A stretch of DNA of 64,000 bases. Origin: a bacterium (GTDB lineage: Bacteria > Myxococcota_A > UBA9042). The stretch spans positions 2,778-66,777 of the forward strand of contig JAUIAC010000002.1 in the NCBI GenBank assembly GCA_030425545.1, given 5' to 3'. Below the pieces are notes generated by a model that did not search any database, was not told the origin of the DNA, and saw only the letters and a list, made by a program, of their open reading frames with translations. Positions 295-32,799 of this stretch are shown here, one piece after another. Within the stretch, counting starts at the first letter, position 1. Each line of letters begins with the position of its first letter. Both the position numbers and the translations under genes were made by a program.

Positions 295-578
295 GGGGAC
301 CTCGTTGGGGGCGGTGTCGGGACCGCGGCGGGGGTTCACGTCGGGGGTCGGTCTGTGTCGCTCGTGGGTGGGCGCGGGCCGCCACGGCGACAGGCGACCT
401 GTGTACTCCAGGCAGCCGCCGCCTGTCAGGTACGGCCGGGGACGCCCCGTGATTCACCCTCGCGCAGGCCCACGGTGGGTATGGGAGATCGTAAGTCCAG
501 CGCTCGCTCGGCCGGAACCGGTCGCGGGGGTGAGACGACTTCCGCTATGCTCCCGTCCGCTTCCTGGGGAGGACGACG

Positions 579-3671: not shown

Positions 3672-3680
3672 GGGGCGGAC

Positions 3681-5783
3681 ATGCGAGCGAAGCGGCGCCC
3701 CTCGGGGCTGGACATGAGGGCAGAGAGCCACGGGACGACCTCGCGCAAGGGCTGGGTAGGGGCGCTCGCCTTGGCGTGCACCCTGGCGGCGTGCGGCGCA
3801 GACGAGGGGAGCGAAGGTGCGGGCGGGAGCGACGCCATCGCCGACGCCGCCGCGGGCGACACGGGGGCCACGGCCGACGGCACCGCGACGAGCGACGACG
3901 CGACGACGGACGACGGCGGCCCAGCGGACAGCGCCGCGAAGAGCGACGACGCGGCAGGCTCACCCGACGCAGCTGCAGCCCACACCTGTGACGACGACAA
4001 GGCCTGCGACGACAAGCTGAGCTGCACCCAGGACAGCTGCACCGCGGGGGCCAGCGGTGGCGCCAAGGCCTGCTCCTGGTCGCTGAAGCCGGACTTCTGC
4101 CTGATCGGCAAGGTCTGCTACGCCAAGGGCGCGGCCCACCCCACCCTGCCCTGCAAGGTGTGCGACCCAGCGGCGAGCACGAGCGGCTGGTCCCAGGCCG
4201 CGCCAGACGCGCCGTGCGAGGACGGCGTCACGTGCACAGTCGACGGCGCCTGCGACGCGGCCGGGGTTTGCAAGGGCAAGCCGCTGACCTGCGACGACGG
4301 CAACCCGTGCACGGACGACGTGTGCCAGCAAGGCCAGGGCTGCGTGTACCCGCCCAAGCCCGGCGACTGCAGCGACGACGACGCCTGCACAAAAGACGAC
4401 GTGTGCGTGGAAGGCACCTGCCTGGGCGACGCCGTGAGCTGCGACGACGACAACCCCTGTACCCAGGACAGCTGCGACCCCAAGACGGCGGGTCAGGACG
4501 GCACCGGCTGCGCCCACTCGAACACAGCCGACCCGTGCGACGACGGCGACGCCTGCACGGCGGACGACACCTGCGCCGAGGGTGTGTGCAAGGCCACGGG
4601 CGCGACCAACTGCGACGACGGCAACGCCTGCACGCTCGACGTGTGCAAGCCCGCCGCGGGCTGCGCCCACCTGCCCACTCAGAGCCCCTGCTGCACGGGT
4701 CAGACCAGCATCTGCGACGACGGCAACCCCTGCACGACAGACCTGTGCGACCCCAAGACCGGGGGCTGCAGCAAGAAGCAGAACACGGCGGTGTGCGACG
4801 ACGGCGACGCCTGCACCAGCAAGGACACCTGCGCCAAGGGCGCCTGCGCGGGCAAGGTGAGCGACTGCGACGACAAGAACGCCTGCACCACCGACGCGTG
4901 CGACAAGTCCAAGGGCTGCGTGCATGCGGCGACCAACGCCGGCAAGCCCTGCGACGACGGCGACGTGTGCAGCAAGAACGACACCTGCCAGAGCGGCAAG
5001 TGCGTCGGCACGGGCGGCTGCGCGTGCACGCCGAAGTTCAGCCAGGTGGCAGCCAAGGTCACCGACATCAAGGTCGGCAAGGGTGGGCAGCCGGGCGAGG
5101 GCCTCGACCTCGACGGCAACGCCAAGACCTGCGCGCCCTCGAGCAGCTGCACGGGCGGCATCGACAACGCCCTGGGAGCCCTCGCGGGCCTGGTCAACGG
5201 GCAGCTCGACAAGCCGGTGCAGGACGGCAGCATCCTCGTGCTCGTGGAGCTCATCGACTTCAAGCAGGGGCCGGTCAAGGCGGCGGTCCACTTGGGGACC
5301 GTTGATCCCAGCAACAAGACCTGCGACTTCCAGAAGCAGACCTGCAAGTACCTCGCTGCACAGTCGCTGCTCGACCCTGTGACCTGCGCGTCGAAGGCGG
5401 TGCTCTCGGGCAAGCTGGTCGGCACCAAGCTCACCGTCGGCGCCAAGGGCGAGGGCTTCCCGGTTGGGCTGCCGCTGCAGGACGGCGTCAACCTGAACCT
5501 GATGCTCTACGACCTGCAGCTGGTGGGCACGGTGGTCACCTCGGGCGGCAAGCTCACGTCCATGACCGGCATCCTGGGCGCCGCGGTGCTGAAGGCCGAC
5601 CTGGAGAAGGCCATCGACGCCCTGCCCAACGAGGGCCTGCCCGTGCCCAAGGCGACCATCAAGGCGCTGCTGGCGAGCACGGTGGAGGTGGACGTGGACG
5701 TGGACGGCGACGGCAAGAAGGAGGCCTCGTCCATCGCCCTGAAGATCAAGGCGATCCCGGCGGTGCTCAGCGGCGCCAAGTAG
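3681..5783 (+). CDS. Paralogous lipoprotein with Myxococcus cysteine-rich repeats and a related C-terminal domain.
   Basis: Lipobox in ALALACTLAACG. It carries the same Cys-rich repeat type. Its C-terminal region shares motifs with the upstream gene (KALLAPTVSDC versus KALLASTVEVD). It starts 9 nt after the stop of the previous gene, which suggests an operon. An alternative ATG lies at 3711. Confidence 0.8.
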   Translation: MRAKRRPSGLDMRAESHGTTSRKGWVGALALACTLAACGADEGSEGAGGSDAIADAAAGDTGATADGTATSDDATTDDGGPADSAAKSDDAAGSPDAAAAHTCDDDKACDDKLSCTQDSCTAGASGGAKACSWSLKPDFCLIGKVCYAKGAAHPTLPCKVCDPAASTSGWSQAAPDAPCEDGVTCTVDGACDAAGVCKGKPLTCDDGNPCTDDVCQQGQGCVYPPKPGDCSDDDACTKDDVCVEGTCLGDAVSCDDDNPCTQDSCDPKTAGQDGTGCAHSNTADPCDDGDACTADDTCAEGVCKATGATNCDDGNACTLDVCKPAAGCAHLPTQSPCCTGQTSICDDGNPCTTDLCDPKTGGCSKKQNTAVCDDGDACTSKDTCAKGACAGKVSDCDDKNACTTDACDKSKGCVHAATNAGKPCDDGDVCSKNDTCQSGKCVGTGGCACTPKFSQVAAKVTDIKVGKGGQPGEGLDLDGNAKTCAPSSSCTGGIDNALGALAGLVNGQLDKPVQDGSILVLVELIDFKQGPVKAAVHLGTVDPSNKTCDFQKQTCKYLAAQSLLDPVTCASKAVLSGKLVGTKLTVGAKGEGFPVGLPLQDGVNLNLMLYDLQLVGTVVTSGGKLTSMTGILGAAVLKADLEKAIDALPNEGLPVPKATIKALLASTVEVDVDVDGDGKKEASSIALKIKAIPAVLSGAK

Positions 5784-11889: not shown

Positions 11890-12000
11890 GGGCGTTCGCG
11901 GTCCGATCGTGGGGTGGGAGCGCGCCGTTCGCGGCGCTGGGAACGCGACATGGACGCGAGGCTGAACGCCAGCGGCGGCTCCACGGAGTGTGCCAGAGCC

Positions 12001-12050
12001 GACAAAACGACACCACGCTGCGTCACCTGAAGGCGACGCAGCGTGGTGTC
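12001..12050 (-). terminator. Rho-independent terminator candidate after rpsN.
   Basis: A perfect 16 bp stem (gacaccacgctgcgtc / gacgcagcgtggtgtc) with a 10 nt loop lies at about 12009..12050. On the minus strand it is followed by a UUUUG tract. Confidence 0.5.
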
Positions 12051-12118
12051 AGAACCGATGCGCCGAGCCCGAAGGCCCTCGCGCTACGCCGTGCGGGACG
12101 ACAGGCGCCCCGCGGCGA

Positions 12119-12424
12119 TCACCAGCTGGCCTTGGTCACGCCGGGCAGCTCACCACGGAGGGCGAGCTCGCGCAGGGCGATGCGGCTGAGGCCGAACTTG
12201 CGGTAGTAGCCGCGCGGACGCCCAGTGAGCACGCAGCGGTTGCGCACGCGGCCGGGGTTGCTGTTGCGCGGAAGCTTCGCAAGGGCGCTCATCGCCAGCT
12301 GCTTGTCGGCGAAGGGGACCTTGGGGTCACGGATAATCGCCTTCAGCTTGGCGCGCTTCTCAGCGTACTTGGCGACCAGCGCCTTGCGCTGCTCGTTCTT
12401 GGCGATTTTGCTCGTCTTGGCCAT
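12119..12424 (-). CDS. rpsN: 30S ribosomal protein S14, long non-zinc form (101 aa).
   Basis: Sequence [30 protein letters not shown]...[41 protein letters not shown]. It has a single Cys and no CxxC...CxxC zinc ribbon. Confidence 0.95.
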
Positions 12425-12446
12425 GTCTGGGATCTCCTGGGGTGGC

Positions 12447-12686
12447 TTACGCGCCCCACTTGCGCTTGAAGCGGTCGATGCGGCCCTCGGTGTCCACGAG
12501 GCGCTGGCGTCCGGTAAAGAAGGGGTGGGAAGCGGACGAGATGTCGAGGCGGATCACGAAGTGATCCACGCCGTCGATGTCACGGGTCTCGCCGCTCTTC
12601 ATGGTCGACCGCGACTGCCACTCCTTGCCAGTGGACGAGTCGTGGAAGAGGACCGGGTGGTAGTCAGGATGGATTTCCGGCTTCAC
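12447..12686 (-). CDS. rpmE: 50S ribosomal protein L31 type B (non-zinc; YkgM/RpmE2-like).
   Basis: Sequence [20 protein letters not shown]...[27 protein letters not shown]. No Cys residues are present, whereas type A has CxxC...CxxC. An AGGAG Shine-Dalgarno sits in the 22 nt spacer before rpsN. Confidence 0.93.
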
Positions 12687-12972
12687 GGTGCGCTCTCATG
12701 AACCCGAGGTTGCCCTCGGCTGGTGCGTCGCCTTGCGGCGAGGCGGGTTTCATTCCCCGCGCTTGGCTCTTGAAGTGTCGGAGGCGGCGGTTGCCGGCCC
12801 GATGTCCCTCGGGAGCGTGTTCAGACACCGACTGAGGCGTCCGAGCGCCAGAACCTGCGAACAGGCCCCTTGGCGGCGGGGGCGGTCAGATAGCGCATCG
12901 CCCTGGGCAATGCAAGCTGATTGTGCAGAAACCAGACGCTTTTGCGCCGAAGGAGCGCGGTCTGAGAGCAGA

Positions 12973-14649
12973 TCATGGACCCGACTCCACGCTGGGCGGA
13001 GCTCGCGGCGCGTGCGCGTCGGGGTCGCCCCGCCGCGTCCGCACCAGGGCGACCCCGCTGGCCGGGTCGCGAAAGACGCGGGGTGCGCCGGGCAGCAGCG
13101 TCCGGCCCGGACCGTCGGGGATCACCCAGGCGTCGCTGCCGGCCAAGGCGCCCGGGCCTGCGCGCGCACCGACCGGATGCAGCACACGCGCCGGGTGGCC
13201 GAGCAGCGCGAGCCCCGGCGCGGCGGCCTCCGGCAACACCGCCTGCACCAGCTGACGCAGGTCACGGGTCTGGCCCGCAGCGAGGTAGGCACGGTTGATC
13301 CCGCGGGACCGAACGACGGCGTCGTCGCCACCCTGGTGGTGCAGCCATGTGGTGCGCCAGACACCGCCGTCGCGCCAAGACCACGGGACCGCAACCAGGG
13401 CGCTCAGCGTCAGAGCGGCAGCCCACAGCCGCGCGCCGCGCGCCACGCCGGCGCTGGGCCCCGTGCGCTGCTTCGCGAGCTCTGACGCGACCGCCGCCGC
13501 GTGCACCGCGCCGATGGCGGCGAGGGTCACCACGAGCCAGAGGCCGGGATGGACAAAGCGCCACACCTTGTAGGGCACGAGCTGGTGGGGCAGCAGCACC
13601 GCCGCGGCGAGCAGGCCCAGGCTGGGCGCCCGGCGCGCGCCGACCAGCGCCAGGGGCAGCAGCAGCCACCGCAGCCCAGGGGCCGCCTCGCCGAAGTGGG
13701 CCCAGTAGCGATCTGCCGGCATGACGCCAAACGCGGTCTGCCCGGCCTGCAAGTTGTAGCGGAGGTAGGCCGCGACGCTGTGGAGCGGCGCGCCCCAGGT
13801 GACCCAGTCGACGGCGCCCCAGAGCGCCACGACGGCGACGCCACCGAGAGCGAACGCGCGCACACCCGCGCGACGCGCGTCCGCTGGCGAGCGGCGCAGC
13901 GCCAGCAAAGCCACGAGCGCCACAGCCGGCGTCAGCTGAACCCGGACGAGCGCGGTCAACGCCGCCAGCGCGCCGACGATCGCCAAGTCGCGCGGCGTGA
14001 GCCCGACGCGCTCGGCCCCACCGGGTGCCTCCGGCTGGGCGACGGGCAAGAGCAGCGGCGGCGCGGCGGTCTCGCCGTGGAGGGTCGGCGCGATCACGGG
14101 GGACTCCGGCGTCTCGCGCAGGGTCAGCACGGGGGGACCCAGCCCGACCGAGAGGCCGCGGTGCGCGAGCGCCAGCAGCAGCGCCGACGCCGGCACGTCG
14201 ATGAGGGGCTGCGCGGCCATGACCACGAACATGGGGTGGCTCGCCCCCAAGGCGAGCACCGCGACCGCGGCCCAATGGCCTGCCTCACGGCGGGCCAGCT
14301 GCACCGCCAGCGCCAGGGCGGCGAGATCGATCGCCACCACGAGGCTCCTGGCCAGGGCGACGGCGGTCGCCATGCCCACGCCGGGCCCGGACAGGTCGAG
14401 CCAGTGACACAGCGCGAAGGGCGCGGAGAGCAGGCCCGGCCAGGTCCAGCTGCGGAGGCCCTGCTTGAACTCCCAGGCCACCACCCCGTAGCCGTGCACC
14501 GCGCGGAACGCGGGCTCAAGCCCCTGGAAGAGCGCGTCTGGGTGCAGGTAGGCGTCCTCGGTCGCGACCTGCCACAGCCGCAGCGAGACCGCGGTGAGCG
14601 CCAGCGCCCAGCGGGTCACACGGCGCGCGCGTCGCGACGATGCGATCAT
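12973..14649 (-). CDS. GT-C glycosyltransferase of family 22 (Alg9/PIG-B-like mannosyltransferase), a polytopic membrane protein.
   Basis: N-terminal signature HPDALFQGLEPAFRAVHGYGVVAWEFKQGLRSW matches the GT22 motif HPDE.FQ..E...YG...TWEW..GIRS. The body is multi-transmembrane. Its start overlaps the upstream stop as ATGA. Confidence 0.72.
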   Translation of the reverse strand: MIASSRRARRVTRWALALTAVSLRLWQVATEDAYLHPDALFQGLEPAFRAVHGYGVVAWEFKQGLRSWTWPGLLSAPFALCHWLDLSGPGVGMATAVALARSLVVAIDLAALALAVQLARREAGHWAAVAVLALGASHPMFVVMAAQPLIDVPASALLLALAHRGLSVGLGPPVLTLRETPESPVIAPTLHGETAAPPLLLPVAQPEAPGGAERVGLTPRDLAIVGALAALTALVRVQLTPAVALVALLALRRSPADARRAGVRAFALGGVAVVALWGAVDWVTWGAPLHSVAAYLRYNLQAGQTAFGVMPADRYWAHFGEAAPGLRWLLLPLALVGARRAPSLGLLAAAVLLPHQLVPYKVWRFVHPGLWLVVTLAAIGAVHAAAVASELAKQRTGPSAGVARGARLWAAALTLSALVAVPWSWRDGGVWRTTWLHHQGGDDAVVRSRGINRAYLAAGQTRDLRQLVQAVLPEAAAPGLALLGHPARVLHPVGARAGPGALAGSDAWVIPDGPGRTLLPGAPRVFRDPASGVALVRTRRGDPDAHAPRAPPSVESGP

Positions 14650-16283
14650 GGTGCGGCCTCCGAGGGCCCGCCGGGCGCACGCGACAGCTGCTGAGCCAGC
14701 CGCGCCTCCGCCAGCGCCCCTTCACGGCGCAGCCAGCTCACCAGCGCGGGCCAGACCTGGTCGGGCGTGCCCCCGAGGTCGACCAGCTCGGGGAGTCGGC
14801 GCAAGCGCGCGGGCAGCGGGGTCGTGCGTTCGGCAGCCAGGGCTGGCGGGTCGAAGGGCCCGGGCCAGGCCTTGTGGCCGGCGATGGCCACGGCGTAGTG
14901 CCACAGGGCCTCGTCGGCCCGGCCGGCGCGCCGCCACGCGCGGGCCAGATGGAGGCGGTTGTGGACCGCCGCCGGGCAGCGCTCGGCGGACGAGCGGTAG
15001 AGGGAGAGCGGGGTCCGCCAGTCGTAGCTGCGCTCCGCCGAGCGCGCCGCGAAGAGCAGCGCGAGCACGGCGAGGGCGGCGGTCATCCGTCGCTGCGCCG
15101 AGGCGGGCAGGCGCCGTGAGAGGCGCTCCACGTCGTGGGCCAGGGCGCCCGCCAGGAAGAGCGACGGCCACAAGAAGATGCGCTCGGCCAGGGTCACAGA
15201 GAGGTCGACCACCCACTGCCCCACCAAGAGGTAGCTCAGCGCGAAGGCGACCCAGAGCCCCGGGGCCCTGCCCTGCCACGTGCGCCACGCGTCCCACCCG
15301 CAGCGCGCCACCACCACCAGGGCCGCCCACGCCCGCCAGCTGCCCAGCACGAAGGGGGACGTCGGTGGCGTCACGTCCGCGTAGGTGTGGTCGGCGCACA
15401 GGCGGAGCGGCACCAGCGCGAGCTCGCCGTAGGTGCCCAGCAGCCCCAGGTTGGCCCACCACCGGGCCGGCCCGCTCAGGCCGACGACGACGTTGTCGGC
15501 GCCGACAAACCCAGGCGGCAGCCCCACCGGGAGCGCCGCCTGGCGGGCCGCGATGTACACCAACCCCGCCACGGCCAAGGCGCCCGGCCCCAGGAGATCG
15601 CGCCGATGGACGGCCCCCGTGCGACGCCAACGGACCGCGAGTAGCCAGGCGGAGAGGGCAGGCAACAGCGCCACAGTCTCCTTGCTCAACAAGGCGAGCA
15701 CGTAGGCCAGCGCCCCAGCCGTCGCGAGCGCGGCGTGACGACCCAGTGAGCGCGCTCGCTGGGCGGCCAGCGTCAGCGCCACCAGCGCCAGGGCCGCCGC
15801 CAGGACGTCAGCCCGGCCGACGACGCTGGCGACGTTCTCCACGTGCACGGGCCACACGGCAAAGAGCAACGCGCCTCCCAGCGACGCGGGGCGGGAGAGC
15901 CGGGCGCCCGTCGGAGCCTGCAACCAGCGCCACAGGCCGAGGGTGAGCGACACGAAGAGCAGCAGGTTGACCAGGTGGTGCAAGAGCGGGCCGGCGCTGA
16001 GCCGATGGACCACCGCGAAGGTGAGCGAGGTCACGGGCCGGTACGAGCTCGACCAGCCGGTGCCCAGCGGCCGGCCCCAGTATTCACGGGTGAAGACCTC
16101 GAGCAGATGGGCGGCGCCGGTGACCGCGGGGTGGCCCAGCACGGCGGCGTCGTCGTCGAAGCTGTAGGCGCTGAATACACCGACACCGTGGCTGAGCACG
16201 CAGGCCACCACGATGAGCGCAGCGGGGACCCAGCGAGCGCGAGGCCCGCGCTCCCGAACGTGGGGGCGCGACGATTCGGTCAC
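14646..16283 (-). CDS. TMTC/DUF1736-like GT-C glycosyltransferase (protein O-mannosyltransferase-like) with a C-terminal TPR-like region.
   Basis: Motif YSFDDDAAVLGHP resembles the F(V/S)FDD catalytic motif of TMTC/PMT-like enzymes. About 10 transmembrane helices precede it. The tail is TPR-like (LARAWRRAGRADEALWHYAVAIAG). GTG start at 16283..16281. Confidence 0.6.
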   Translation of the reverse strand: MTESSRPHVRERGPRARWVPAALIVVACVLSHGVGVFSAYSFDDDAAVLGHPAVTGAAHLLEVFTREYWGRPLGTGWSSSYRPVTSLTFAVVHRLSAGPLLHHLVNLLLFVSLTLGLWRWLQAPTGARLSRPASLGGALLFAVWPVHVENVASVVGRADVLAAALALVALTLAAQRARSLGRHAALATAGALAYVLALLSKETVALLPALSAWLLAVRWRRTGAVHRRDLLGPGALAVAGLVYIAARQAALPVGLPPGFVGADNVVVGLSGPARWWANLGLLGTYGELALVPLRLCADHTYADVTPPTSPFVLGSWRAWAALVVVARCGWDAWRTWQGRAPGLWVAFALSYLLVGQWVVDLSVTLAERIFLWPSLFLAGALAHDVERLSRRLPASAQRRMTAALAVLALLFAARSAERSYDWRTPLSLYRSSAERCPAAVHNRLHLARAWRRAGRADEALWHYAVAIAGHKAWPGPFDPPALAAERTTPLPARLRRLPELVDLGGTPDQVWPALVSWLRREGALAEARLAQQLSRAPGGPSEAAP

Positions 16284-16285
16284 GC

Positions 16286-17074
16286 TCAGCTCGTCAGGCG
16301 AGCGTCCCGCGTGACGTGCAACGCCTCGACACGGAACAGCGCGCTGGGGCCGCGGCTGACGACGAAGCGCGCGATGCGGCTGCGCACGGCCGGGTCCATG
16401 CCGACAAATCGAACGCCGATGCCCGGCACCTGCATCGGCGCCCCACCCGGCGCGTCCGTGTCGTCGGCGGGCGCCACGCGACGGACGACCTCTCCGACGA
16501 CCACGACCGGCGAGTCGTCGGGCGGTAGGGGAAAGCGCAGGGAGACGTGAGCGCCCAGCGCCGGCGCGTCGGACAGCCGCACGAAGACACCGCCCATGCT
16601 GACGTTGAAGATCTCGCCCGCCCAGGTGCCGCCGTCCTCGGTCTCCACCAGCGCCCCTGCGGTCAGGAGCACGCGCGGGCTGGCACGATCGTCCCGTTCG
16701 GCGGGGAAGAGCGCGGCGTTGACCTCGTAGAGCAGCATCTCGAGCGGAGAGTCGGGGCCTGGGGTGAAGACGCGCAGGGGGACGTCCACCGGCGGCGTGA
16801 CATCGCGCCCGTGCGGGGCGACGACCACCACCGGCACGGGGCGCGTCGGAGCGGCCGCTCGCACGACGCGGGTCACATGCTCGAGGCGGTCCTCGCCGAA
16901 CCCGGCGTCCACCAGCACGAGGTCGATCTCACCGGGCTGGGCTCGCAGCACGGCGGAGACGTCTTCAGGGTCGGTCGACACGACCACGGGGAAGTGGGGC
17001 CGGAGCAAGCTCACAACGTCGGTGCGCGTCCCGTCGGGCGGCAAGAGCAAGAGCAAGCGGCGAACGCGGCGCAT
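16286..17074 (-). CDS. Response-regulator receiver-like domain fused to a PilZ domain.
   Basis: The REC-like N-terminus carries LLLLPPDG...IDLVLVDAGFG. PilZ-like C-terminal region RVLLTAGALVETEDGGTWAGEIFNVSMGGVFVRL. Stop lies 2 nt from the downstream GTG start. The ORF could extend to 17179. Confidence 0.6.
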   Translation of the reverse strand: MRRVRRLLLLLPPDGTRTDVVSLLRPHFPVVVSTDPEDVSAVLRAQPGEIDLVLVDAGFGEDRLEHVTRVVRAAAPTRPVPVVVVAPHGRDVTPPVDVPLRVFTPGPDSPLEMLLYEVNAALFPAERDDRASPRVLLTAGALVETEDGGTWAGEIFNVSMGGVFVRLSDAPALGAHVSLRFPLPPDDSPVVVVGEVVRRVAPADDTDAPGGAPMQVPGIGVRFVGMDPAVRSRIARFVVSRGPSALFRVEALHVTRDARLTS

Positions 17075-17308
17075 GAGAGCCTCGACGGGGCGGGAGCCGG
17101 GGAGTGCGAAACAGGTGGGAGCGAGGCAGCGCCGAGGGAGCGCTCGCGGACGAAGTGCGGCGCTGGTCGTGGGGGACACGCCCAGCCGCGCCTAGAGTAG
17201 CCGGGCGCGTGCCAGAGGGACAGCGGCAAGGGCCAATGGGCCTTCGGACGGGCGACCGCGGAGGGCGCGGGGGGCTCCGGCGACATTGAGGGGCGAGGGG
17301 GCGGAGCC

Positions 17309-20300
17309 CTACTTCAGCGAGCGCGCCAACGCCTGTCGTAGCGTGACGCCCCAGGCCCGCTCCACCTCGGTGACCAGGGCGGACGGATCCCGCTCGAGGG
17401 CGGCGATGTCCCACAGCCGCACGTCGCCGTCCCAGCTGGCGGTGGTGAGGAGCTGGCCCCGCGGACCGAAGTCGACGCTGGACACCTGACGGACGTGGCC
17501 GCGCAGGGTCGCCAGCAGGGTTCGGTCCCGGACGCGCCAGACCTCACACGTCCCGTCCACCAGCCCTGCCGCCACGAGGCTGCCGCCAGGGTTCACGGCG
17601 ACGTCGAAGGTCCGACGGGCCAGATCCCCCAGCACGAAGGCGTGCGTCACCTTGGGCTGCGTGTGGCCCGGCTCCACCTCGAACACCCGCAGGCGTCGCG
17701 TCGCCGCCACGGCGAGCGTGCGCCCCTCGGGGGAGACGGCGAGCGCCGTGGCCTGCGTCGGCCCCTCGAGCTTCGCGGCGTGCAGCTGGCCGGGCGCGCT
17801 CGCCGAAGGCTCGTGGAGCGACCATACAGCCCCGCCTATGGTGGCCACCCACAGCGCGGCGCCGTCGGCCGTGCGCGACATGTCGACCACCCGCAGCGGT
17901 GCGGCCGCGGCGTCCAGGACAACGCCCGTCGCGTCGTAGGTCAGGAGTCGACGTACGAAAGCGGCGGCGACCACCCTGCCACTGGACAGCAGCGCCGCGC
18001 GCTTGTGGCCGCCAACCCCGCTGGTCCACAGCGGACGCCATGTGCGGGTGTCATACAGGCGCATGGACCTCGTGCCCGCACAGGCGACGAGCAGGGAGCG
18101 ACCATCGGGCGAGAAGCTCGCGGACTTCAGCACGCGCCGCTGCCACCGGTCGCGCAGCAGCAGCGCGCCGTCGCGGAGCGCGCGCACCTCCAGCCAGCCA
18201 TTGGCCTTGCCGATGGCCACGGTCGCCCCGTCCGGCGACAGGGCGGCAAAGGCCAGGCCGACGGGCGGACGGGCCTGGCTCAGACGGTCGACGTGGGGCG
18301 CTGACGGCAGCCGCCACACGGACACGCGACGGCCGAAGGTGGTGACAACAGCTCCCGAGGCGGACAGGCGGAGGTCGGTGACGCCGGCGCCAGGAACCCG
18401 ACCTAGCACGGCGCCGGTGCGAGCGTTCCACACCTCGACGTGCTGCTGCGTCCCCCACACCGCCACGTTGGCCCCCTGGCGCCCCACGGCCATGGCCTGC
18501 ACGCCGCCGACGTGGACGCGCCCCCGCAACACCACCCGGGAGTCTCTCAGCCGGACCACGGCCAGGTCGCCCGTGCGGCCGGCCACCACGACATGGGCGC
18601 CGTCGGGCAGCCACGCGATGGCGGCGACGCCGTTCGTCCGGTGGTCCAGCCCGGTCCGCGTCCAACCGGGCAGCGGGTTGCCCTCGAGGTCGACCACCCG
18701 CAGCCAGCCCAGGCTGCACATCACGGCGATCCGCTGTCCCTCCGGCGAGAGCCGCGCCTGAATCGCCAGCCCACCGAGGGCGCACGCGCGATGCGTCCGG
18801 CTCCCGATGGTGTCCGCCACGTACACGTCGCCATCGGACGTGCCCACGGCCTCGGAGCGGGCGCCCTGACGATCCCAGGCCATGGGCCAGGGCATCGCGT
18901 GATCGACGGCCCACAAGCGGCGCGGCATCGGCGTCCCGTCCCGTGTGGAGAGCCAGCGGGCGTGGCTGCGACGGCCCTTCGCGTAGACGCCGACGCGATC
19001 GCCAAGCAAGAGCGCGTCCCCCACCGGCGCCGCAGGATCCGCGGGCTCGGTGAGGGTGTCTGTCGGACCGACGCCGGGGATGGGGCGAACCAGCAGTGTG
19101 CCTTCGCGCGCCCGCGCACGGCGCCACCGCAGCGCCAGCGGCGCGCGATCGACCGCGCTGACCCGGGGCTGCGGCTGTCGCGCAGCGCTGGGCACGTCGT
19201 AGAAGAGCACCGCGTCCCCGGCGACGCAGAGGACGGTCGCTCCCTCCGGCCCGGGCGCGAGACGGTCGCAGGCGGGGAGCGGGTGATCCCCCACCAGCTG
19301 AGGGCGAGGCGCGACGCCGAAGCCCGCGAGGGTCCCGCGCGCCGAGGGCGACGGCGCGAGGCGGAGGGCGTTGGCGGCGAACACCTCGGCTTCGGCGCGG
19401 CGCCCGTCACGAAGCGCGGCGTCGGCCTTCTGCACCAGGGCGAGGCGCAGGTTCTCGTTGGACTGCTCCATGGTCTCACGGGTCTGCGCCTCGGCCGCGA
19501 TGGCGCGGTCGCGCTCCAGCCCCGTACGTCGGGCCGCAAACAAGCCCAGCCCCACGAGGAGGCAGGTCGCCACTGCCGCGACGACGAGCGGGCCCCGCCA
19601 CGCCCGCGCCAGGCGACGCAGCTGCTCAGCAGGGGAGTAGACATGCGCCTCGACCAGCCGGCCGTCGAGGAAGCGCGCGACGTCGTCGGCGAGCGCCTTG
19701 GCGTCGCTGTAGCGGTCCTCGGGGTCGGGGCGCAGGGCGCGCGCCACGATGGCGTAGAGGGCGCGTGGACCCGCGCGCTCGCCCAGCCACGCCGGGTCGT
19801 CAGCCCGGCGCAGCGCGATCTGGTGAAAGGCCTCGTCGGGTCGGTCGCCCGAGAGCAGCTCCCACAGCATCACCCCCAGGCTCCACACGTCGCTCCGGGC
19901 GTCGGCCACGTGTCCGAGCGCTTGCTCGGGGCTCATGTAGGCCGGCGTACCGATGACCGCGCCGACGCGGGTCACAGAGCTGTCGGGTGGCGTAGCGCTC
20001 GCCACACCCCGTGCGGCGGCCGGCGGCGTCGCACCGCCGTCGTCTTCGTCGCCGAGGCCCGCTCCGACCAGGCTGTCGCCCCCTGCTGAGCCCTCCGGGA
20101 GGTCCCGCGCCCGGCGCGCGAGCCCCCAGTCCACCACCTGCGTCTCGCCATAGGCGCCCACCATCACGTTGTCGGGCTTGAGGTCGCGGTGGACAACGCC
20201 CTTCTGGTGCGCGTAGGCCACCGCCTCGCACGCCGCCTGCAGGTGGCGCAGGAGCCGAAGGCGCGCCTGGAGGTCCGCTGCCTCCGCCAGCGCGTCCCGC

Positions 20301-20758
20301 AAGCTGCGTCCGCGGATGAGGCGCATGGTGTAATAGGGCGTCCCGTCGTCCGCCTCGCCCGCGTCGTACACCGGCACGATGGCCGGGTGCTCCAGGTAGG
20401 CCGTGATCCTGGCTTCGCGGACGAAGCGCGCGAGCAGCTCCGGCCCGCTCCCTTGCCCGACGGCGACCCGTTTGTGCGCCACCTGCCGGTCGAGCACGCG
20501 GTCGTGGGCGCTGCACACCACCCCCATGCCGCCAGCGCCGAGCTCCCCCGCGACGTCGTAGCGCTGCGCCGGATCGCGCCCCAGCGCCGTGCGTGGCGTC
20601 ACCACGTCCTCCGCCGACGTGTCCCACACTCCGCTCGGCCTCGCGCCGTGGACCACCGATCCCACGGCCCAGCCGGGCTGCGGCGAGGGCTCGGGGGCCT
20701 CGGCGGGCACGTCCCGTGGCGCGTCGCGTGGCGCGTCGTGTCGTGCGTCACCTGCCAC
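17309..20758 (-). CDS. Ser/Thr protein kinase with one transmembrane helix and an extracytoplasmic WD40/beta-propeller region.
   Basis: Kinase domain with GAGGMGVVCSAHD, HRDLKPDNV, DWGLAR and GTPAYMSPE. A transmembrane helix follows (VVAAVATCLLVGLGLFAA). The C-terminus has WD40 hallmarks (ASWDGDVRLWD). The ORF runs to 20914 but would then overlap the upstream gene by 135 nt. GTG at 20758 is the first in-frame start after the upstream stop; the start is uncertain. Confidence 0.82.
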   Translation of the reverse strand: MAGDARHDAPRDAPRDVPAEAPEPSPQPGWAVGSVVHGARPSGVWDTSAEDVVTPRTALGRDPAQRYDVAGELGAGGMGVVCSAHDRVLDRQVAHKRVAVGQGSGPELLARFVREARITAYLEHPAIVPVYDAGEADDGTPYYTMRLIRGRSLRDALAEAADLQARLRLLRHLQAACEAVAYAHQKGVVHRDLKPDNVMVGAYGETQVVDWGLARRARDLPEGSAGGDSLVGAGLGDEDDGGATPPAAARGVASATPPDSSVTRVGAVIGTPAYMSPEQALGHVADARSDVWSLGVMLWELLSGDRPDEAFHQIALRRADDPAWLGERAGPRALYAIVARALRPDPEDRYSDAKALADDVARFLDGRLVEAHVYSPAEQLRRLARAWRGPLVVAAVATCLLVGLGLFAARRTGLERDRAIAAEAQTRETMEQSNENLRLALVQKADAALRDGRRAEAEVFAANALRLAPSPSARGTLAGFGVAPRPQLVGDHPLPACDRLAPGPEGATVLCVAGDAVLFYDVPSAARQPQPRVSAVDRAPLALRWRRARAREGTLLVRPIPGVGPTDTLTEPADPAAPVGDALLLGDRVGVYAKGRRSHARWLSTRDGTPMPRRLWAVDHAMPWPMAWDRQGARSEAVGTSDGDVYVADTIGSRTHRACALGGLAIQARLSPEGQRIAVMCSLGWLRVVDLEGNPLPGWTRTGLDHRTNGVAAIAWLPDGAHVVVAGRTGDLAVVRLRDSRVVLRGRVHVGGVQAMAVGRQGANVAVWGTQQHVEVWNARTGAVLGRVPGAGVTDLRLSASGAVVTTFGRRVSVWRLPSAPHVDRLSQARPPVGLAFAALSPDGATVAIGKANGWLEVRALRDGALLLRDRWQRRVLKSASFSPDGRSLLVACAGTRSMRLYDTRTWRPLWTSGVGGHKRAALLSSGRVVAAAFVRRLLTYDATGVVLDAAAAPLRVVDMSRTADGAALWVATIGGAVWSLHEPSASAPGQLHAAKLEGPTQATALAVSPEGRTLAVAATRRLRVFEVEPGHTQPKVTHAFVLGDLARRTFDVAVNPGGSLVAAGLVDGTCEVWRVRDRTLLATLRGHVRQVSSVDFGPRGQLLTTASWDGDVRLWDIAALERDPSALVTEVERAWGVTLRQALARSLK

Positions 20759-20778
20759 GTCGCGGGGAGGCTCGCGGC

Positions 20779-21693
20779 TCACGTGTGGTCTTGCACGCGG
20801 TCGTCGCCATAGAGCAGCAGCTCGACCGTCCCGCGGCCCCCCGCACGGACCAGGTCCGTGCGCACGCCGGCCCCACGCAGCTTGCGCCGCAGCCGGTTGA
20901 GGTTGACGTCCCACTTGCGGCGCAAGGCGATCCGGTCGGGCTCCTTGGGCCAGATCTCGCCCGCCAGCACGGCCCAGCCAACCGGGCCGTCCACGGCCAC
21001 GAGCTCGGAGACGATGCGCGCCGCGATGCCGTCGAGCGCCAGGGCTGGCTGCCCGTCTTGCAGGATGTGGGCCGTGTCGTAGCGCGCGACGAGCGTGAGC
21101 GGCCGCCGCAGCGCACCCTCGAGCTGGGTCGCCCCCTGCGCCAGACGCGCGAGAGGCACCGCCACGGCGCTCACCGTCACGCCCTCGATGTCGAACACGT
21201 CGCCCTCGTGAAGCTCGAGCGCGGGCTCACGGCGGGCGGCGCCGTCGCGGGTCTGGAGCACCCAAGCCTGCCCGGTGTTCCAGATATGGGCGCTCGCTGT
21301 GGCCCGGTAGCGCGGCACCAGCGCCGGCGCCGGCTCGAGCACGAGGCTGGTGGTCCCGGCGAGCACCTGACGCAGCTCTCCCCCGACGTCGATGGCCAGC
21401 ACGCGCTCCGGCAGCGCGACGTCGACGACGTGCAGCCCGAGCCCAGGCGCCATCTCCACGTCGAGCCCCGGTGTGAGGGTGACCTCGTTCACCGGCCGGC
21501 CAGCGACCGCGAACATGCCCCGCAGCGCCAGCAACTTCAGGTCCTTGCCGCGCAGGCTGACCATGGCGTGAGCCTCGGAGATGCGGGCGTCGCTCAGGTG
21601 CAGGGCCGCTGTGGTGAGCCGACCGATGAGGTCGCCCGGCACAAGCGACGCGACGGTGCCGTCGGGCAGTCGGAGACGAACGTGAGCGTGCAT
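20779..21693 (-). CDS. Regulator with an N-terminal FHA-like domain and a C-terminal OmpR/PhoB-type winged-helix DNA-binding domain.
   Basis: N-terminal region GDLIGRLTTAALHLSDARISEAHAMVSLRG fits the FHA pattern GR....D..SR.HA. C-terminal region IWPKEPDRIALRRKWDVNLNRLRRKLRGAGVRTDLVRAGGRGTVELLL matches the trans_reg_C consensus. Confidence 0.62.
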   Translation of the reverse strand: MHAHVRLRLPDGTVASLVPGDLIGRLTTAALHLSDARISEAHAMVSLRGKDLKLLALRGMFAVAGRPVNEVTLTPGLDVEMAPGLGLHVVDVALPERVLAIDVGGELRQVLAGTTSLVLEPAPALVPRYRATASAHIWNTGQAWVLQTRDGAARREPALELHEGDVFDIEGVTVSAVAVPLARLAQGATQLEGALRRPLTLVARYDTAHILQDGQPALALDGIAARIVSELVAVDGPVGWAVLAGEIWPKEPDRIALRRKWDVNLNRLRRKLRGAGVRTDLVRAGGRGTVELLLYGDDRVQDHT

Positions 21694-22023: not shown

Positions 22024-22938
22024 ATGCGACCCACCTCGTTGAAACGCCGGTCTACCTTCCGTCTGTCCCACCGCCATGCCGCCGGGCCCCGCGGCGTCCG
22101 CGCGCGGCCCACCCGAGACCTCACCGCGCCAGCGACGGCCTGGCTCTGTGCGTTCGGCCTAGTCGCGGCGCTGGGCGGCTGCACCCCGGAAGAGAAGGGC
22201 CCCGAGCTGCCGCCCGAGGCGTCGATGACCGTCGACGTGAGCGCGTTCAAGGCCGGCGCCGCCAGCGGAAAGACGGACGGCACCGGCACCGGCGACACGT
22301 CCCACGCCGCAAACGCCTGGACGCGCGTGGCGTGGCTCAACACCGCCGTCGTGGTCGGCCTGGCCGCGCCCAGGCTGGCGCTGCGCGCCGCGCTCAGCCA
22401 GCGCCCCTCCTTCGCCAATGGCGCGTGGAACTGGCTCTTCAACGTCAAGGCAGGCGGCGACACCCTCGCCGCCGATCTGACCGGGCGCTTCGGCAACAAC
22501 GCGGTGTCGGGCAGCGACCTCGATCTCGAGATGCGCCTGACCTGCACCGGCTGCAAGGTCCCCACGGACAACTTCCTCTGGTACACCGGGCGCTTCGACA
22601 GCGGTGCGCGCTCGGGACAGTGGCAGCTCTTCCATCCCGACATCGCGCAGGACGACAAGACCTTCGTGCACATCGCGTGGGAGATCACCGACCCGACGCA
22701 CAAGACGCTGACGTTCACGAACAAGCGCACCGACGGACACGCCGACGCTGGCGACGTCATTCAGTACCTGCGCGACGGCGACGCGCTGAGCGTGACGGTG
22801 CACGACGCGGACAAGGCGCTGGACTACACCGCGGAGATCTCCGTCGCCACGGGCGCGGGTTGGCTGCAGGTCCCCGGCTACAACAAGGGCGAGAAGGCGT
22901 GCTGGGACAGTGAGCGGGTCAACACCCCGTGCCCGTAG
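22024..22938 (+). CDS. Hypothetical lipoprotein.
   Basis: MRPTSLKRRSTFRL...WLCAFGLVAALGGC is a lipobox signal. ORF 21910..22938 is trimmed to the first ATG before the signal peptide. No recognised domain. The antisense ORF 21594..22760 is rejected. Confidence 0.55.
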   Translation: MRPTSLKRRSTFRLSHRHAAGPRGVRARPTRDLTAPATAWLCAFGLVAALGGCTPEEKGPELPPEASMTVDVSAFKAGAASGKTDGTGTGDTSHAANAWTRVAWLNTAVVVGLAAPRLALRAALSQRPSFANGAWNWLFNVKAGGDTLAADLTGRFGNNAVSGSDLDLEMRLTCTGCKVPTDNFLWYTGRFDSGARSGQWQLFHPDIAQDDKTFVHIAWEITDPTHKTLTFTNKRTDGHADAGDVIQYLRDGDALSVTVHDADKALDYTAEISVATGAGWLQVPGYNKGEKACWDSERVNTPCP

Positions 22939-23028
22939 TGCGCGTCGGACCCGCGGTGTGCGTCGGACCCGCAGTGTGCGTTGGACCCGCATTGTGCGTT
23001 GGACCCGCAGTGTGCGTCAGACCCGCAG
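22939..23028. repeat. Tandem repeat of 18 bp, five copies (gtgcgcgtcggacccgcg-like), directly after the lipoprotein stop codon.
   Basis: Read from the sequence: gtgcgcgtcggacccgcg / gtgtgcgtcggacccgca / gtgtgcgttggacccgca / ttgtgcgttggacccgca / gtgtgcgtcagacccgca. Confidence 0.8.
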
Positions 23029-23074
23029 GGCGCGTCGCCGCCTGAGGACTGCCGCGACCGCCACACACGCCGGT

Positions 23075-23118
23075 GCGTCAGGCGTCGGGGCGTCGGGGCG
23101 TCGGGGCGTCGGGGCTTC
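23075..23118. repeat. Tandem repeat of 9 bp, four to five copies (gcgtcgggg).
   Basis: Read from the sequence: cgtcaggcgtcggggcgtcggggcgtcggggcgtcggggc, lying between two convergent genes. Confidence 0.75.
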
Positions 23119-23131
23119 AGTCATCGGGGCG

Positions 23132-25455
23132 TCACTCGTCGATGCGCAGGTCGCGGTCGTCACGGGCTCGGAGCAGCGCGCGCAGCGCTCCGACATCGAG
23201 CGCGCCGTCGGGCCGCTGCAGCACCGCTGCGGCGGCCGCCGGTCCACGAGCGGTGCCCGGATCGGCCCCGCTGGCGGCAACCCCAGGACCTTGGGTCACG
23301 GCGGGCACGCGAGCGTCGCGTGGACGGCCGCCCTCGTCCAAGGTCGCGGCGACCAGGCGTCGCACGGCGGCCGCGCGGGCGGCCTTCGACGCGCTGGCGT
23401 CGAAGCCGATCGGGTCCGCTCCAAGCGCGCGCAAGCTGCGCGCCGCGGTGCGGCGCACCGCGGCGTAGGGGTCGTCGAGGGCCAGGGTCAGCAGCGGCAC
23501 CTGCCAGTCGCGGCCCGAGATCGCCAGCGCCGGACCCCAGGCCAGGTGCCAGGCTGCGAGGGCGCGGAGCCCCGGCTCGCCTGAGAGCAGCCACCGCACG
23601 GACGCTGCCACGCGCGTCGGTGGCGGCGCCGCCCCCTGCCCCGTGGCGTGGCCGTCAGCCGGCCTGGGTGTCCGGAAGCGCTCCGGCCACCAGCGCCCCA
23701 TGGCCGCGACGCTCCAGTCGAGCGGCCGGTCGAGGTGGCACAGGTTGCACGCCAGGGGCCGGCCTGCGGCGTGATCCGCGCTTGGATCCGGCACGCGAAT
23801 CTCATGGTCACGGGTCGCCTTGAGCAGGCTCCAGGCCGTGTTCGGCATGTGACAGCTCTGGCAGCGCGCGCCGCTGCTCGCCGCGGGATGGTGGCTGTGG
23901 TCGGCCTTCGCGCGCTCGGACGCGAGCGTCGTGTGGCACCCCACACACGCGGCGTCGCCTCGCGCGCCCGGGCGCAACTGGTCGTCGCGCCAGTGGGTGA
24001 GGTGCCCACCGACCGGCACGGCCTCGATGCGCGCGGCAGCCAGGGCAGCCGGCTGCGGATCCGTGGCCCCAGCGAGGCGCGTCGACCGGCCCGGCGCCGA
24101 GCTCCCGTCGCCAGCCACCGGTCCGACCGGGGCGGCGCCGGCGTCGTGCAGGCTGTGACACCCAGCGCAGCCCAAGGTGCCCTGCTGGTAGCAGCGCGAG
24201 CGACGCAGGGCGCTGTACTCCCGCCCCGCCACGCGCAGCCCGCCGTCCCGCCAGAACAGGCCATGCAGCGGCCACCGCGGGTCGTCGGCGTGCGCGCGCT
24301 GGTCCTCCCCGGTGAGCAGCTTCGCGTGGTCTGCCAGCGCGGCGCCGGGGCGAAAGCTGCGCCCCTGCTCGTGCACGGCGTCGAAGCGGTCTGGATCGTC
24401 GACGACCACCCCATGGCACTGGCCACACACCTGCGACCCGCGCCGGTGGTCAAGCCGACCCGGGTGGACGATGCCGTCTGGGCTCGCGCCCGCTGCGGCG
24501 CGTGGTTTGCGTGTGCCGAACAGGCGCGCGACGCGGGCGGCATAGCGCGCCCACGGCGCCCGAAAACGAGCGATGTGGCGGCCAGCGGGGCCGTGGCAGG
24601 ACTCACAGGCGATGCCGTGCTCGACCACGTCAGAGTCCCCGAATCGGGCCCTCGGCTGCGTGGTGTGGCACTGGATGCAGCTCGCGTTCCACAGCCCGGC
24701 AGAGCGATCCTCCACGGGGCCCTCCTCGCGCTCGATGTCGTGCGCCGGCTGCACAAAGATGTCGTCGAAGGGCACCCACCGCGCCGCCCGACGCAGCCAC
24801 ACCACCGGCGCCAAGGCCAGCTTGCGCGCCTCGCCCGCGGCCAGCCAGTAGGCCTGCTGGTGGTGCGAGCCGGTCATGAGCACCACCCGACGTCGCACCG
24901 GAGGGGCGTCTGGGCTCCCGGGCACCCCCAGGTCGAAGAAGTAGGCGTCGCCCTCGCGCACGGGGCGAACCACGCGGTCGGGCAGCCGCAGCGGCGCTCC
25001 GTCGAAGCGCCCGAGCACGCGCCCCGGCTCGGGCCTCTGGGTCATGGTGCTGTGGTGGGAGCGGCGCCACGAGGCGAACGCGGCGGGGTGACAGGTCCGG
25101 CACGCGGCGGATCCCACGAAGCCGTCCTCGCGGGCGCCCTGCCCCGCCACGACGAGCGGCTCGTCGCTGGGCGGCGCGCGCGGCGTCGGCGTCGGCGCCA
25201 GCCCGGCGACGGCCGCCAGGATCAGCGCGCACACCGCCGCGCCCGCGCGCCAACGGCCGCGAGCCACCGCCACCGCCGCCAGGGCCAGCGCCGCGCCCGC
25301 CCAGAGCGCCGCTTGGACCCAGGCTTCGTCGGTCGTGGGCAAGGCCGCTGAGACAGCTGCGCCGCTCCGCAGCGTGCGCCAGCCGGTTGCTTCGCTTCGG
25401 CCAAGGGGCGCGCAGGCCCAACTGCGGCCTGCGCTGTCGGCTGGCCGAGGCAGCA

Positions 25456-25456
<1 letters not shown>
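23132..25456 (-). CDS. Octaheme c-type cytochrome with an N-terminal membrane anchor and C-terminal HEAT-like (PBS lyase-type) repeats.
   Basis: Eight CxxCH motifs: CRTCH, CIQCH, CESCH, CGQCH, CAGCH, CVGCH, CQSCH and CNLCH. The N-terminus has hydrophobic helices. C-terminal DPYAAVRRTAARSLRALG is a HEAT-like repeat. Its ATG overlaps the RND permease stop as TGATG. Confidence 0.82.
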
Positions 25457-28799
<3,343 letters not shown>

Positions 28800-28803
<4 letters not shown>

Positions 28804-32238: not shown

Positions 32239-32799
32239 GGTGCGTCAGATGCCTGCGGGTCTGGGGGGGGTTCGGAGCCCGGGCGCTTGGGGTGCTGTGC
32301 CCGGGTCTGGCGAGCGCCGCCAGAGTTAGTGAGGGCACACTTACTTTCTTGCGCGCTCGCCGTCAAGGCGTAAGTGAGCGCCCACTTACTTTCTGGAAGC
32401 GCGTACGTCAACGGCTCAGGTCGCCAGACGACGCGCGAATTCCACGGCGAAGACGTCGGGACGGCGACGGTGGGCTGGCGCGCATCGCGCGATGTCGGAC
32501 CGCCGGGGGGCCTGTTTTGCGGTGCTAGGTCTGTGGCACGCGCCGCGGTCAGTGAGCGCCGAGCGGGCCGGTCGGCCGCCGCGGCGCGCGATCACACGGG
32601 GCTCGCCAAGAAGTGCAAAGACATCGCGCCACGCCCTCCCCCGTCCGGGGGACACGTCGCACTCAACCAACTGAAATCACGCGCCACCGCCTTTCGGGCG
32701 GGCGCCCTGGCTGCGACGCTGCGCGGGTCCCCCCCAACGATCCCGCGGCTGGTTCTGCGCCCGCCGCCCACGGCCTCAAGCCGCACACGGAGTCTCGCC

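Follow-up and report, generated by a model that had tools for sequence, protein, structure and literature searches.

Do three closely packed minus-strand genes of a Myxococcota genome, one coding for a PilZ-type receptor of cyclic di-GMP (c-di-GMP) and two for membrane enzymes of 'eukaryotic ER' mannosyltransferase families, form a single regulated glycosylation system? The question is raised by a 64,000-nucleotide stretch of contig JAUIAC010000002.1 (GenBank assembly GCA_030425545.1; hereinafter the window), in which g1 (the PilZ gene), g2 (coding for a TMTC-like protein) and g3 (coding for a GT22-family protein) follow one another with scarcely a gap. A first-pass annotation, made from the sequence alone, had taken this trio for a coupled operon and a candidate module for c-di-GMP-linked mannosylation of proteins or glycolipids. 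Our analysis partitions it differently: g2 and g3 constitute a conserved two-gene module of GT-C-fold glycosyltransferases in one Myxococcota clade, whereas g1 is, in the reading that we favor, a lineage-specific neighbor that was set beside g2 by local rearrangement and is not integral to the module. We hold this reading as a whole, in which g2-g3 is a periplasmic sequential glycosylation module with the PilZ protein as its neighbor, to be somewhat better than an even proposition; a c-di-GMP-controlled mannosylation system is not supported.

The product of g2 escapes the curated models of the family to which the first-pass annotation had assigned it. It shows no match at E <= 1 to any Pfam (including DUF1736/PF08409) or NCBIfam model, and a scan of 26 members of its subfamily returned only sub-threshold matches to PMT_2, GtrII and DUF1736, the last being weak and confined to one of the 26 (E 0.007). 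A protein database search recovered ~43 homologues of g2 (42-62% identity), all of them lacking Pfam domains. The TMTC/DUF1736 assignment thus fails as a direct match of hidden Markov models but stands on remote homology and predicted fold. The weaker database matches of g2 (E 1e-10 to 1e-22) are bacterial proteins with tetratricopeptide repeats (TPRs) and one eukaryotic protein, some of them carrying PF08409, and g2 matches the eukaryotic PF08409 protein P0056 directly (E 6.7e-13). In a profile-profile comparison with hhalign, a profile of the 26 subfamily members aligned with 11 such TPR proteins over 494 columns (probability 100%, E 4.9e-61); six of these 11 pass the PF08409 model (best E 4e-20), and TPRs are present in every one of them.

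An AlphaFold2 (AF2) model of g2, built from the 26-sequence alignment (pLDDT 88.7, pTM 0.90), agrees with this placement. Its best Foldseek matches in the PDB are all GT-C enzymes, namely STT3 of the oligosaccharyltransferase, Pmt4, AglB, AftA, AftD, ALG3, EmbA/B, PglB and Pmt1-Pmt2, with probabilities of about 1.0 but E-values of 4e-3 or weaker; sequence-profile searches of the PDB with the g2 and g3 profiles recovered no GT-C chains. The helices of the model, taken together with loop charges, predict 11 transmembrane (TM) helices, an N-terminus that is positively charged and cytoplasmic, and an external C-terminal domain, which would place this domain and all the motif loops, including those with the putative catalytic residues, in the periplasm. 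Such a topology agrees with the one proposed for the TMTCs (PMC6801728) and, along with the GT-C fold and the lumenal or periplasmic C-terminus, is shared with TMTC1-4 (CAZy GT105, PF08409) and their uncharacterized bacterial TPR homologues.

Most of the TMTC motifs are kept in g2, some of them in altered form. Eisenhaber and colleagues (PMC7801869) defined for TMTC1-4 the motifs M1 (DD), M2 (SHKSYRP), M3 (RxD), M4 (KE(T/Q)), M5 (DW) and M7 (ERxxY). The F-D-D noted in the first pass is present in g2 as F42-D43-D44, and its aspartates correspond to M1; also kept are RAD (157-159), KET (201-203) and ER (367-368). In M2, SYRP (80-83) is retained within SSSYRP (78-83), the TMTC His-Lys being replaced by Ser-Ser; M5 keeps only its metal-binding Asp (D298-H299, Trp to His) within LCADHTY, a stretch aligned to the DUF1736 segment in the relatives; and M7 reads ERIFL, with Tyr replaced by Leu. 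D43, D44, R82, P83, R157, D159, K201, E202, D298 and R368 are invariant in the 26 subfamily sequences.

The C-terminal TPR region that had been attributed to g2 is recognizable as a helical domain of ~120 residues, with eight short helices in the AF2 model, which hhalign places on the TPR region of the relatives; as a TPR region proper its similarity is weak. There is no Pfam TPR match in g2 itself, TPR_4 appears in four of the 26 subfamily members only at E >= 0.03, and a PDB profile search with g2 matched TPR proteins only weakly (E >= 0.055). TMTCs carry a TPR domain of 8-10 repeats, whereas this domain of g2 is, to judge from the model and the alignment, the remnant of such an array, cut down to a stub. 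Taken together, these features identify g2 as a predicted GT-C enzyme of a divergent, TPR-reduced, TMTC-like (GT105-like) type that fails the curated model of its own family. As a separate observation, two cysteines, C296 in the LCADHTY loop (about 15396-15398) and C436 in the stub (CPAAVHNR; about 14976-14978), are invariant in 26/26 sequences; both are predicted to be periplasmic and could form a disulfide linking the stub domain to the catalytic loop.

The assignment of g3 to GT22 held up. It passes Pfam PF03901 (Glyco_transf_22), scoring 68.9 bits where the cut-off is 23.8 (E 6.4e-19; residues 18-384, profile positions 4-334 of 414), and the same domain is carried by 22/22 of the other g3 matches listed from a large protein database. 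The signature HPD..FQ..EP...YG..AWEF, read earlier in the sequence, is borne out as HPDALFQGLEPAFRAVHGYGVVAWEF (H36-F61), in which H36, P37, D38, Q42, L44, P46, A47, F48, G53, W59 and E60 are invariant across a 17-sequence alignment. GT22 enzymes require a DxD-type motif (PMC6801728), matched in g3 by the acidic motif of the first extracytoplasmic loop just after TM1; a crude hydropathy scan did not resolve the helices of g3. This invariant first-loop HPD...Q..EP....WE and the passed PF03901 model are what g3 shares with ALG9, ALG12, PIG-B and PIG-Z/Smp3, and one g3 orthologue bears the automatic JGI label 'GPI mannosyltransferase 3'. Unlike these enzymes, g3 is bacterial, has a TMTC-like partner and no N-glycan or GPI pathway context, and contains a Pro-rich insert and a conserved extra C-terminal region of ~130 residues (W431-TTW...QGG...PG..LLGH) outside the Pfam model. 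The insert (~50 residues, about 168-225; about 13975-14148) is absent from most orthologues, and in the two closest ones its place is taken by different inserts.

We compared the window with 14 other loci containing a g2 orthologue, drawn from species-representative genomes and metagenome contigs, all of which are Myxococcota metagenome-assembled genomes (Nannocystaceae, 'Myxococcales') or unclassified relatives. A GT22 gene lies directly 3' of g2 in 10 distinct loci (the window, L002-L005, L007, L009, L037, L038/L039 and L042) of the 14 with a readable downstream region; L008 ends inside g2 and was left out of this count. Wherever gene calls exist among the paired loci, g2 and g3 overlap by 4 nt, as they do in the window, and the overlap is identical in L037, L038 and L039. 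For five further metagenome contigs the length is identical in a g2 match and a g3 match. The genes upstream of the pair vary and are unrelated to one another: they include valyl-tRNA synthetase (ValRS), MutY, a PALP enzyme on the other strand, a multihaem cytochrome and a beta-lactamase-fold protein. No GT22 gene adjoins the more distant paralogues of g2 (27-33% identity; L011-L035), and thus the pairing is specific to the g2 subfamily. A search around the pair in L003-L010 and the window for a third conserved partner, such as a polyprenyl-phosphate-sugar synthase or a flippase, found none.

The association with the PilZ gene behaves quite differently. Of the 15 g2 loci only the window has a PilZ gene upstream of g2, and the order g1-g2-g3, proposed in the first pass as something to look for elsewhere, occurs in no other genome examined. 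Among 5.8 billion proteins we detected a single g1 orthologue, P0084 (53-56% identity), and a tblastn search of all fetched loci with g1 gave matches only in the window's own contig (L001) and in the P0084 locus, L036. The latter reads Usp-OEP-MFP-AcrB-PilZ-L31-S14-metallophos: the PilZ gene occupies the same syntenic slot as in the window, and there is no cytochrome, g2, g3 or other GT-C gene. The closest relatives, L037 and L038/L039, are collinear with the window over >20 kb and share the order OEP-MFP-AcrB-multihaem cytochrome-g2-g3-L31-S14-metallophos-DCC1-like-STK(DUF5939)-Dicty_CTDC protein. There and in L002 the cytochrome gene leads directly into g2, and in L037/L038 its stop lies 2-4 nt ahead of the homologous g2 GTG (GGAGGAGTAGCCGTG...). 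Because the cytochrome stop precedes the GTG so closely in these relatives, tight coupling to whatever gene is upstream is a property of g2 at this locus and not the signature of a PilZ partnership. In protein identity L036 and L037/L038 are at about the same distance from the window, the AcrB proteins being 77% identical between the window and L036, versus 71-72% between the window and L037/L038. Whether the PilZ gene was inserted into this slot or was ancestral there and then lost, each component exists without the other.

In the window, a lineage-specific segment of ~6.85 kb, absent from the closest collinear relatives by tblastn, lies between the cytochrome stop and the g2 start. It contains a further candidate open reading frame (ORF), a 304-residue ORF, a Ser/Thr kinase-WD40 (STK-WD40) protein of 1,157 residues and g1. 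Signs of a mobile element were sought there and not seen: direct repeats do not flank it and its G+C content is that of its surroundings. The 304-residue ORF has no Pfam match and overlaps the start of the ~1,157-residue STK-WD40 gene by 4 nt (17309-21693, minus strand); neither has a counterpart in the collinear relatives, and the kinase gene ends 234 nt upstream of g1. At the edge of the segment, just 3' of the cytochrome stop, are six 18-nt tandem units (22932-23039), which on the minus strand read in one frame as SDAH(Y/R/C)G-like hexapeptides, and adjoining them a run of four 8-nt GGCGTCGG units (23081-23112). At 22780-22796, within another ORF, 17 nt match the g1/g2 junction in inverted orientation, which was judged to be due to chance.

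Within this genome, nonetheless, the physical coupling of the three genes is tight. The junctions described in the first pass are both read directly in the sequence: g1 ends 2 nt before the GTG of g2 (...ACG AGC TGA GC GTG ACC..., with the stop at 16286-16288 and the GTG at 16283), and the g2 stop and g3 start overlap as ATGA. All three ORFs have a G+C content at third codon positions (GC3) of 0.89-0.92 in a window of ~72% G+C, across which coding frames are distinguished by GC3 values of 0.87-0.92. A longer g1 ORF beginning with GTG at 17179 was rejected, the 262-residue length of P0083 and the N-terminus of the orthologue favoring the ATG at 17074. It is very probable that g1 is co-transcribed and translationally coupled with g2-g3 here. 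The promoter of the unit likely lies in the 234-nt gap 5' of g1, the only sizeable one in the unit; a separate gap of ~286 nt precedes L31. A promoter scan found no sigma-70-like sites in 11900-17500. A relaxed pattern does pick out a sigma-54-like element, TGGCACGCGCCCGGC (GG-N10-GC; 17200-17214, minus strand), 126 nt 5' of the g1 ATG; since this pattern is not enriched in the window, being rarer than in shuffles (3 versus 8.2 expected), we treat the match as a lead and not as promoter evidence. What stood of the proposed three-gene module is therefore its compact arrangement in this genome, and what did not is its standing as one functional c-di-GMP-linked unit.

The g1 protein is itself well defined in its C-terminal half. 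Its PilZ domain passes PF07238 (53 bits versus a cut-off of 22.5, E 5e-14), and both c-di-GMP-binding motifs, which the first-pass annotation had singled out for inspection, are intact: in the RxxxR motif R134 is invariant and R130 is present in at least 90% of 24 REC-PilZ homologues, and in the NxSxxG motif G162 is invariant and S159 present in at least 90%. An AF2 model, built from two sequences (pLDDT 75.7), combines a (beta-alpha)5-like N-terminal domain with a beta-barrel, and Foldseek matches it to the c-di-GMP-bound PilZ domains of BcsA, MotI, Alg44, YcgR and MapZ (E about 1e-6 to 4e-5) and to the PmrA receiver (E 7e-4, TM(target) 0.75). To judge from motifs and predicted fold, then, the PilZ domain looks able to bind c-di-GMP.

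The receiver (REC) domain is a different matter. An exhaustive profile search gave 1,331 relatives of g1, many of ~245 residues and aligning over their full length, and REC-PilZ proteins of that size are common; among 24 full-length homologues PilZ was found by Pfam in 24/24 and Response_reg in 18/24. In g1 itself there is no Response_reg match at E <= 1, the nearest being GlnR_1st at E 0.04, and its receiver is recognizable solely via the homologues and the predicted fold, with strands at 7-10, 30-33, 52-56, 82-85 and 100-103 and a helix after four of the five, none lying between the fourth and fifth. In the 24-homologue alignment the DD pair is replaced by L/P-P, Thr/Ser87 by Ala and Lys109 by Pro, while D56 is kept. 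With the acidic pair, the Thr/Ser and the Lys gone and only the acceptor Asp left, canonical phosphorylation appears unlikely. The REC domain read in the first pass accordingly survives as a predicted fold with receiver-bearing homologues, but not as a Pfam match in its own right or as a set of phosphorylation residues. The combination of receiver and PilZ is known in myxobacteria from Myxococcus xanthus PixA (PMC8316039); PixA is arranged as PilZ-REC with a canonical receiver, whereas g1 is REC-PilZ with a degenerate one.

What might the g2-g3 pair do? By analogy with the characterized families, each enzyme would draw its sugar from a polyprenyl-phosphate carrier at the periplasmic side of the membrane. 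The donor of the TMTCs is dolichyl-phosphate-mannose (Dol-P-Man), whereas periplasmic g2, being bacterial, would use an undecaprenyl- or polyprenyl-phosphate sugar; the sugar transferred would most likely be mannose, since Dol-P-Man serves the TMTCs and every GT22 enzyme alike (PMC7801869; PMC6801728). We suggest that g2 would initiate and that g3 would then add a further mannose to the same acceptor, for which a secreted or periplasmic protein is weakly to be preferred, a lipid-linked glycan being nearly as likely. The g1 protein, being cytoplasmic, would find little surface to act on in enzymes with periplasmic active sites.

Several points weigh against this reading. The pairing has exceptions, in that g2 lacks a GT22 neighbor in four loci (L006, L010, L040 and L041), with a radical-SAM gene taking the GT22 position in one sub-lineage, represented by L010 (8810-10174) and L041 (6761-7957). 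The literature that we searched holds no biochemical or functional study of any bacterial TMTC-like or GT22 protein, so the sugar and the acceptor rest on eukaryotic analogy. No gene for a polyprenyl-phosphate-mannose synthase is present in the window or adjoins the pair in the other loci. The characterized GT22 enzymes all act on lipid-linked acceptors and the TMTCs on proteins (PMC6801728), and the shared acceptor of g2 and g3 is for this reason an assumption. As regards g1, if the PilZ gene was ancestral in the slot that it occupies in the window and L036, its absence elsewhere would reflect loss and would not prove independence; moreover, the 2-nt junction ties expression of the pair to the PilZ gene in this genome, where a local regulatory role is possible.

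The acceptor is the point on which the most substantial rival turns. The pair could act on a lipid or polysaccharide (a lipoglycan, lipopolysaccharide core, exopolysaccharide or lipid-linked oligosaccharide) and not on protein, a reading that we regard as possible yet on the doubtful side. In keeping with it, the characterized GT22 enzymes ALG9, ALG12, PIG-B and PIG-Z all work on lipid-linked glycans, ALG3 and the arabinan or arabinogalactan enzymes AftA, AftD and Emb are among the Foldseek matches of g2, and the array by which TMTCs recognize proteins is mostly gone from g2. Yet the nearest characterized family, the TMTCs, and the best structural matches, STT3, Pmt4 and AglB, modify proteins, and genes for polysaccharide export or lipid carriers (Wzx/Wzy, GT2 primers) are not conserved beside the pair. 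A functional tie of g2 to the upstream resistance-nodulation-division (RND) pump and multihaem cytochrome operon, with g2 for instance glycosylating the cytochrome or the pump and the GT22 enzyme as an optional accessory, would account for the packing of OEP-MFP-AcrB-cytochrome-g2-g3 with gaps of 2-4 nt or overlaps in L037, L038, L039 and L002, and for AcrB lying directly upstream of g2 in L006 and L008. However, since distant g2-g3 loci have the unrelated upstream genes listed above (ValRS, MutY, the opposite-strand PALP enzyme and the beta-lactamase-fold protein), this linkage is restricted to one sub-clade and may be inherited synteny; we judge such a tie very improbable.

We also think it unlikely that g1-g2-g3 is one unit after all, in which the REC-PilZ protein would sense c-di-GMP, and perhaps phosphorylation, and switch both mannosyltransferases through protein contact. 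The two junctions make co-expression in this genome almost certain, the binding motifs of g1 are intact, its predicted fold resembles that of PilZ domains with bound c-di-GMP, among them the ones in the glycan synthases BcsA and Alg44, and an orthologue in the same slot of another lineage is compatible with an ancestral PilZ-g2-g3 arrangement followed by losses. Against this stand the adjacency in one of 15 g2 loci, the lack of a GT-C neighbor for the sole g1 orthologue, the missing receiver residues, and the predicted periplasmic active site and short cytoplasmic loops of g2; in PilZ-regulated synthases as they are known, the catalytic domains are cytoplasmic. The PilZ domain of g1 has both binding motifs and a predicted fold matching the PilZ domains of BcsA (cellulose synthase) and Alg44 (alginate), but the latter belong to a conserved synthase complex, by fusion or as a stable component, whereas the link of g1 is gene adjacency in a single genome. 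Chance adjacency is plausible, and a chance PilZ neighbor unsurprising, because PilZ genes are numerous in myxobacteria, with 24 of them in M. xanthus (PMC8316039). Also very improbable, in our estimate, is that the degenerate-receiver PilZ protein truly regulates the GT-C pair in a c-di-GMP-dependent manner, through the short cytoplasmic loops or the translational coupling, with an ancestral PilZ-g2-g3 unit lost later. Were it so, GT-C glycosylation dependent on polyprenyl-phosphate sugars would for the first time be seen under the control of c-di-GMP. At present the idea is founded on gene adjacency in a single genome, and it should not spread as an annotation.

If g2 and g3 do act in sequence, as we favor, a functional analogy lies in the protein O-mannosylation of actinobacteria, where the GT39 enzyme Pmt initiates and a second GT-C mannosyltransferase is thought to elongate, so that two polyprenyl-phosphate-mannose-dependent GT-C enzymes work in sequence outside the cytoplasmic membrane. 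The actinobacterial system consists of GT39 and GT87 enzymes whose genes are not adjacent, whereas g2-g3 is a TMTC-like/GT22 pair with no Ppm1-type synthase near. In public databases, bacterial PF08409 and PF03901 proteins already go by automatically assigned names, among them 'protein O-mannosyl-transferase' and 'GPI mannosyltransferase 3'. What is new here is the TPR-reduced TMTC-like subfamily, which, being invisible to Pfam, is now annotated as hypothetical, its recurrent pairing with GT22 in one Myxococcota clade, and the non-conserved nature of the PilZ link. The compact conserved pair is a tractable entry point: it may reveal the role of these mannosyltransferase families in prokaryotes, and also by what means an enzyme of TMTC type functions when its TPR domain is nearly gone. 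The features of the locus are collected in Table 1.

Table 1. Coordinates of features at the g1-g2-g3 locus, numbered along the window.
Feature	Positions	Strand	Description or basis
g1 (PilZ gene)	16286-17074	minus	262 aa, cytoplasmic; degenerate receiver domain, then PilZ domain
g1 receiver-like domain, about residues 5-125	16700-17062	minus	Degenerate; no Response_reg match; alignment of 24 homologues
g1 PilZ domain, residues 129-238	16361-16690	minus	Pfam PF07238
g1 RxxxR motif, R130-A-S-P-R134	16673-16687	minus	24 REC-PilZ homologues
g1 NxSxxG motif, N157-V-S159-M-G-G162	16589-16606	minus	24 homologues
g1/g2 junction	16283-16288	minus	TGA, 2 nt, GTG; direct sequence reading
g2 (TMTC-like GT-C)	14646-16283	minus	545 aa, GTG start, 11 predicted TM helices
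g2 DD motif, D43-D44	16152-16157	minus	Periplasmic loop 1 (predicted), putative catalytic; invariant in 26 homologues; TMTC motif M1 (PMC7801869)
g2 C-terminal helical domain, residues 425-545	14649-15011	minus	Predicted periplasmic; eight short AF2 helices; hhalign to TPR region of relatives
g2/g3 junction	14646-14649	minus	ATGA, 4-nt overlap; ORF coordinates (g2 end 14646, g3 start 14649)
g3 (GT22)	12973-14649	minus	558 aa, ATG start, Alg9/PIG-B-like; conserved C-terminal extension
g3 first-loop signature, H36-F61	14467-14544	minus	17-sequence alignment
Intergenic region upstream of g1	17075-17308	minus	234 nt; candidate promoter site; STK-WD40 gene ends at 17309
Lineage-specific segment	16286-23131	minus	~6.85 kb between cytochrome stop and g2 start; absent from closest collinear relatives (tblastn)

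The surroundings of the trio offer some further observations. Directly 3' of g3 lies a gene pair for the ribosomal proteins L31 (79 aa, without cysteine) and S14 (101 aa, long form) at 12119-12686 on the minus strand, followed by a terminator with a 20-bp stem (12008-12051). The related lineages all keep L31-S14 in this position, whether they have the GT-C genes or not (L006, L010, L036, L037, L038 and L041); in L041 the radical-SAM gene overlaps g2 by 4 nt and L31-S14 come next. The two look like a zinc-independent paralogue pair, which suggests a neighborhood context of metal starvation (Zur-type). On the other side, an RND efflux operon (OEP-MFP-AcrB) is continued by a multihaem c-type cytochrome gene and then by g2-g3 in L037 (1769-13482) and L038 (97-11503), its counterpart in the window being at 23132-29175. 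A cytochrome inside an efflux-pump operon is odd and raises the question whether the glycosyltransferases act on this cytochrome. Farther off, the window codes for very large Dictyostelium-type CTDC-repeat proteins (534-5783 and 32374-37821, both on the plus strand), one of which, of 1,815 residues, has an RCC1-like propeller; these giants are eukaryote-like repeat proteins of a kind typical of myxobacteria.

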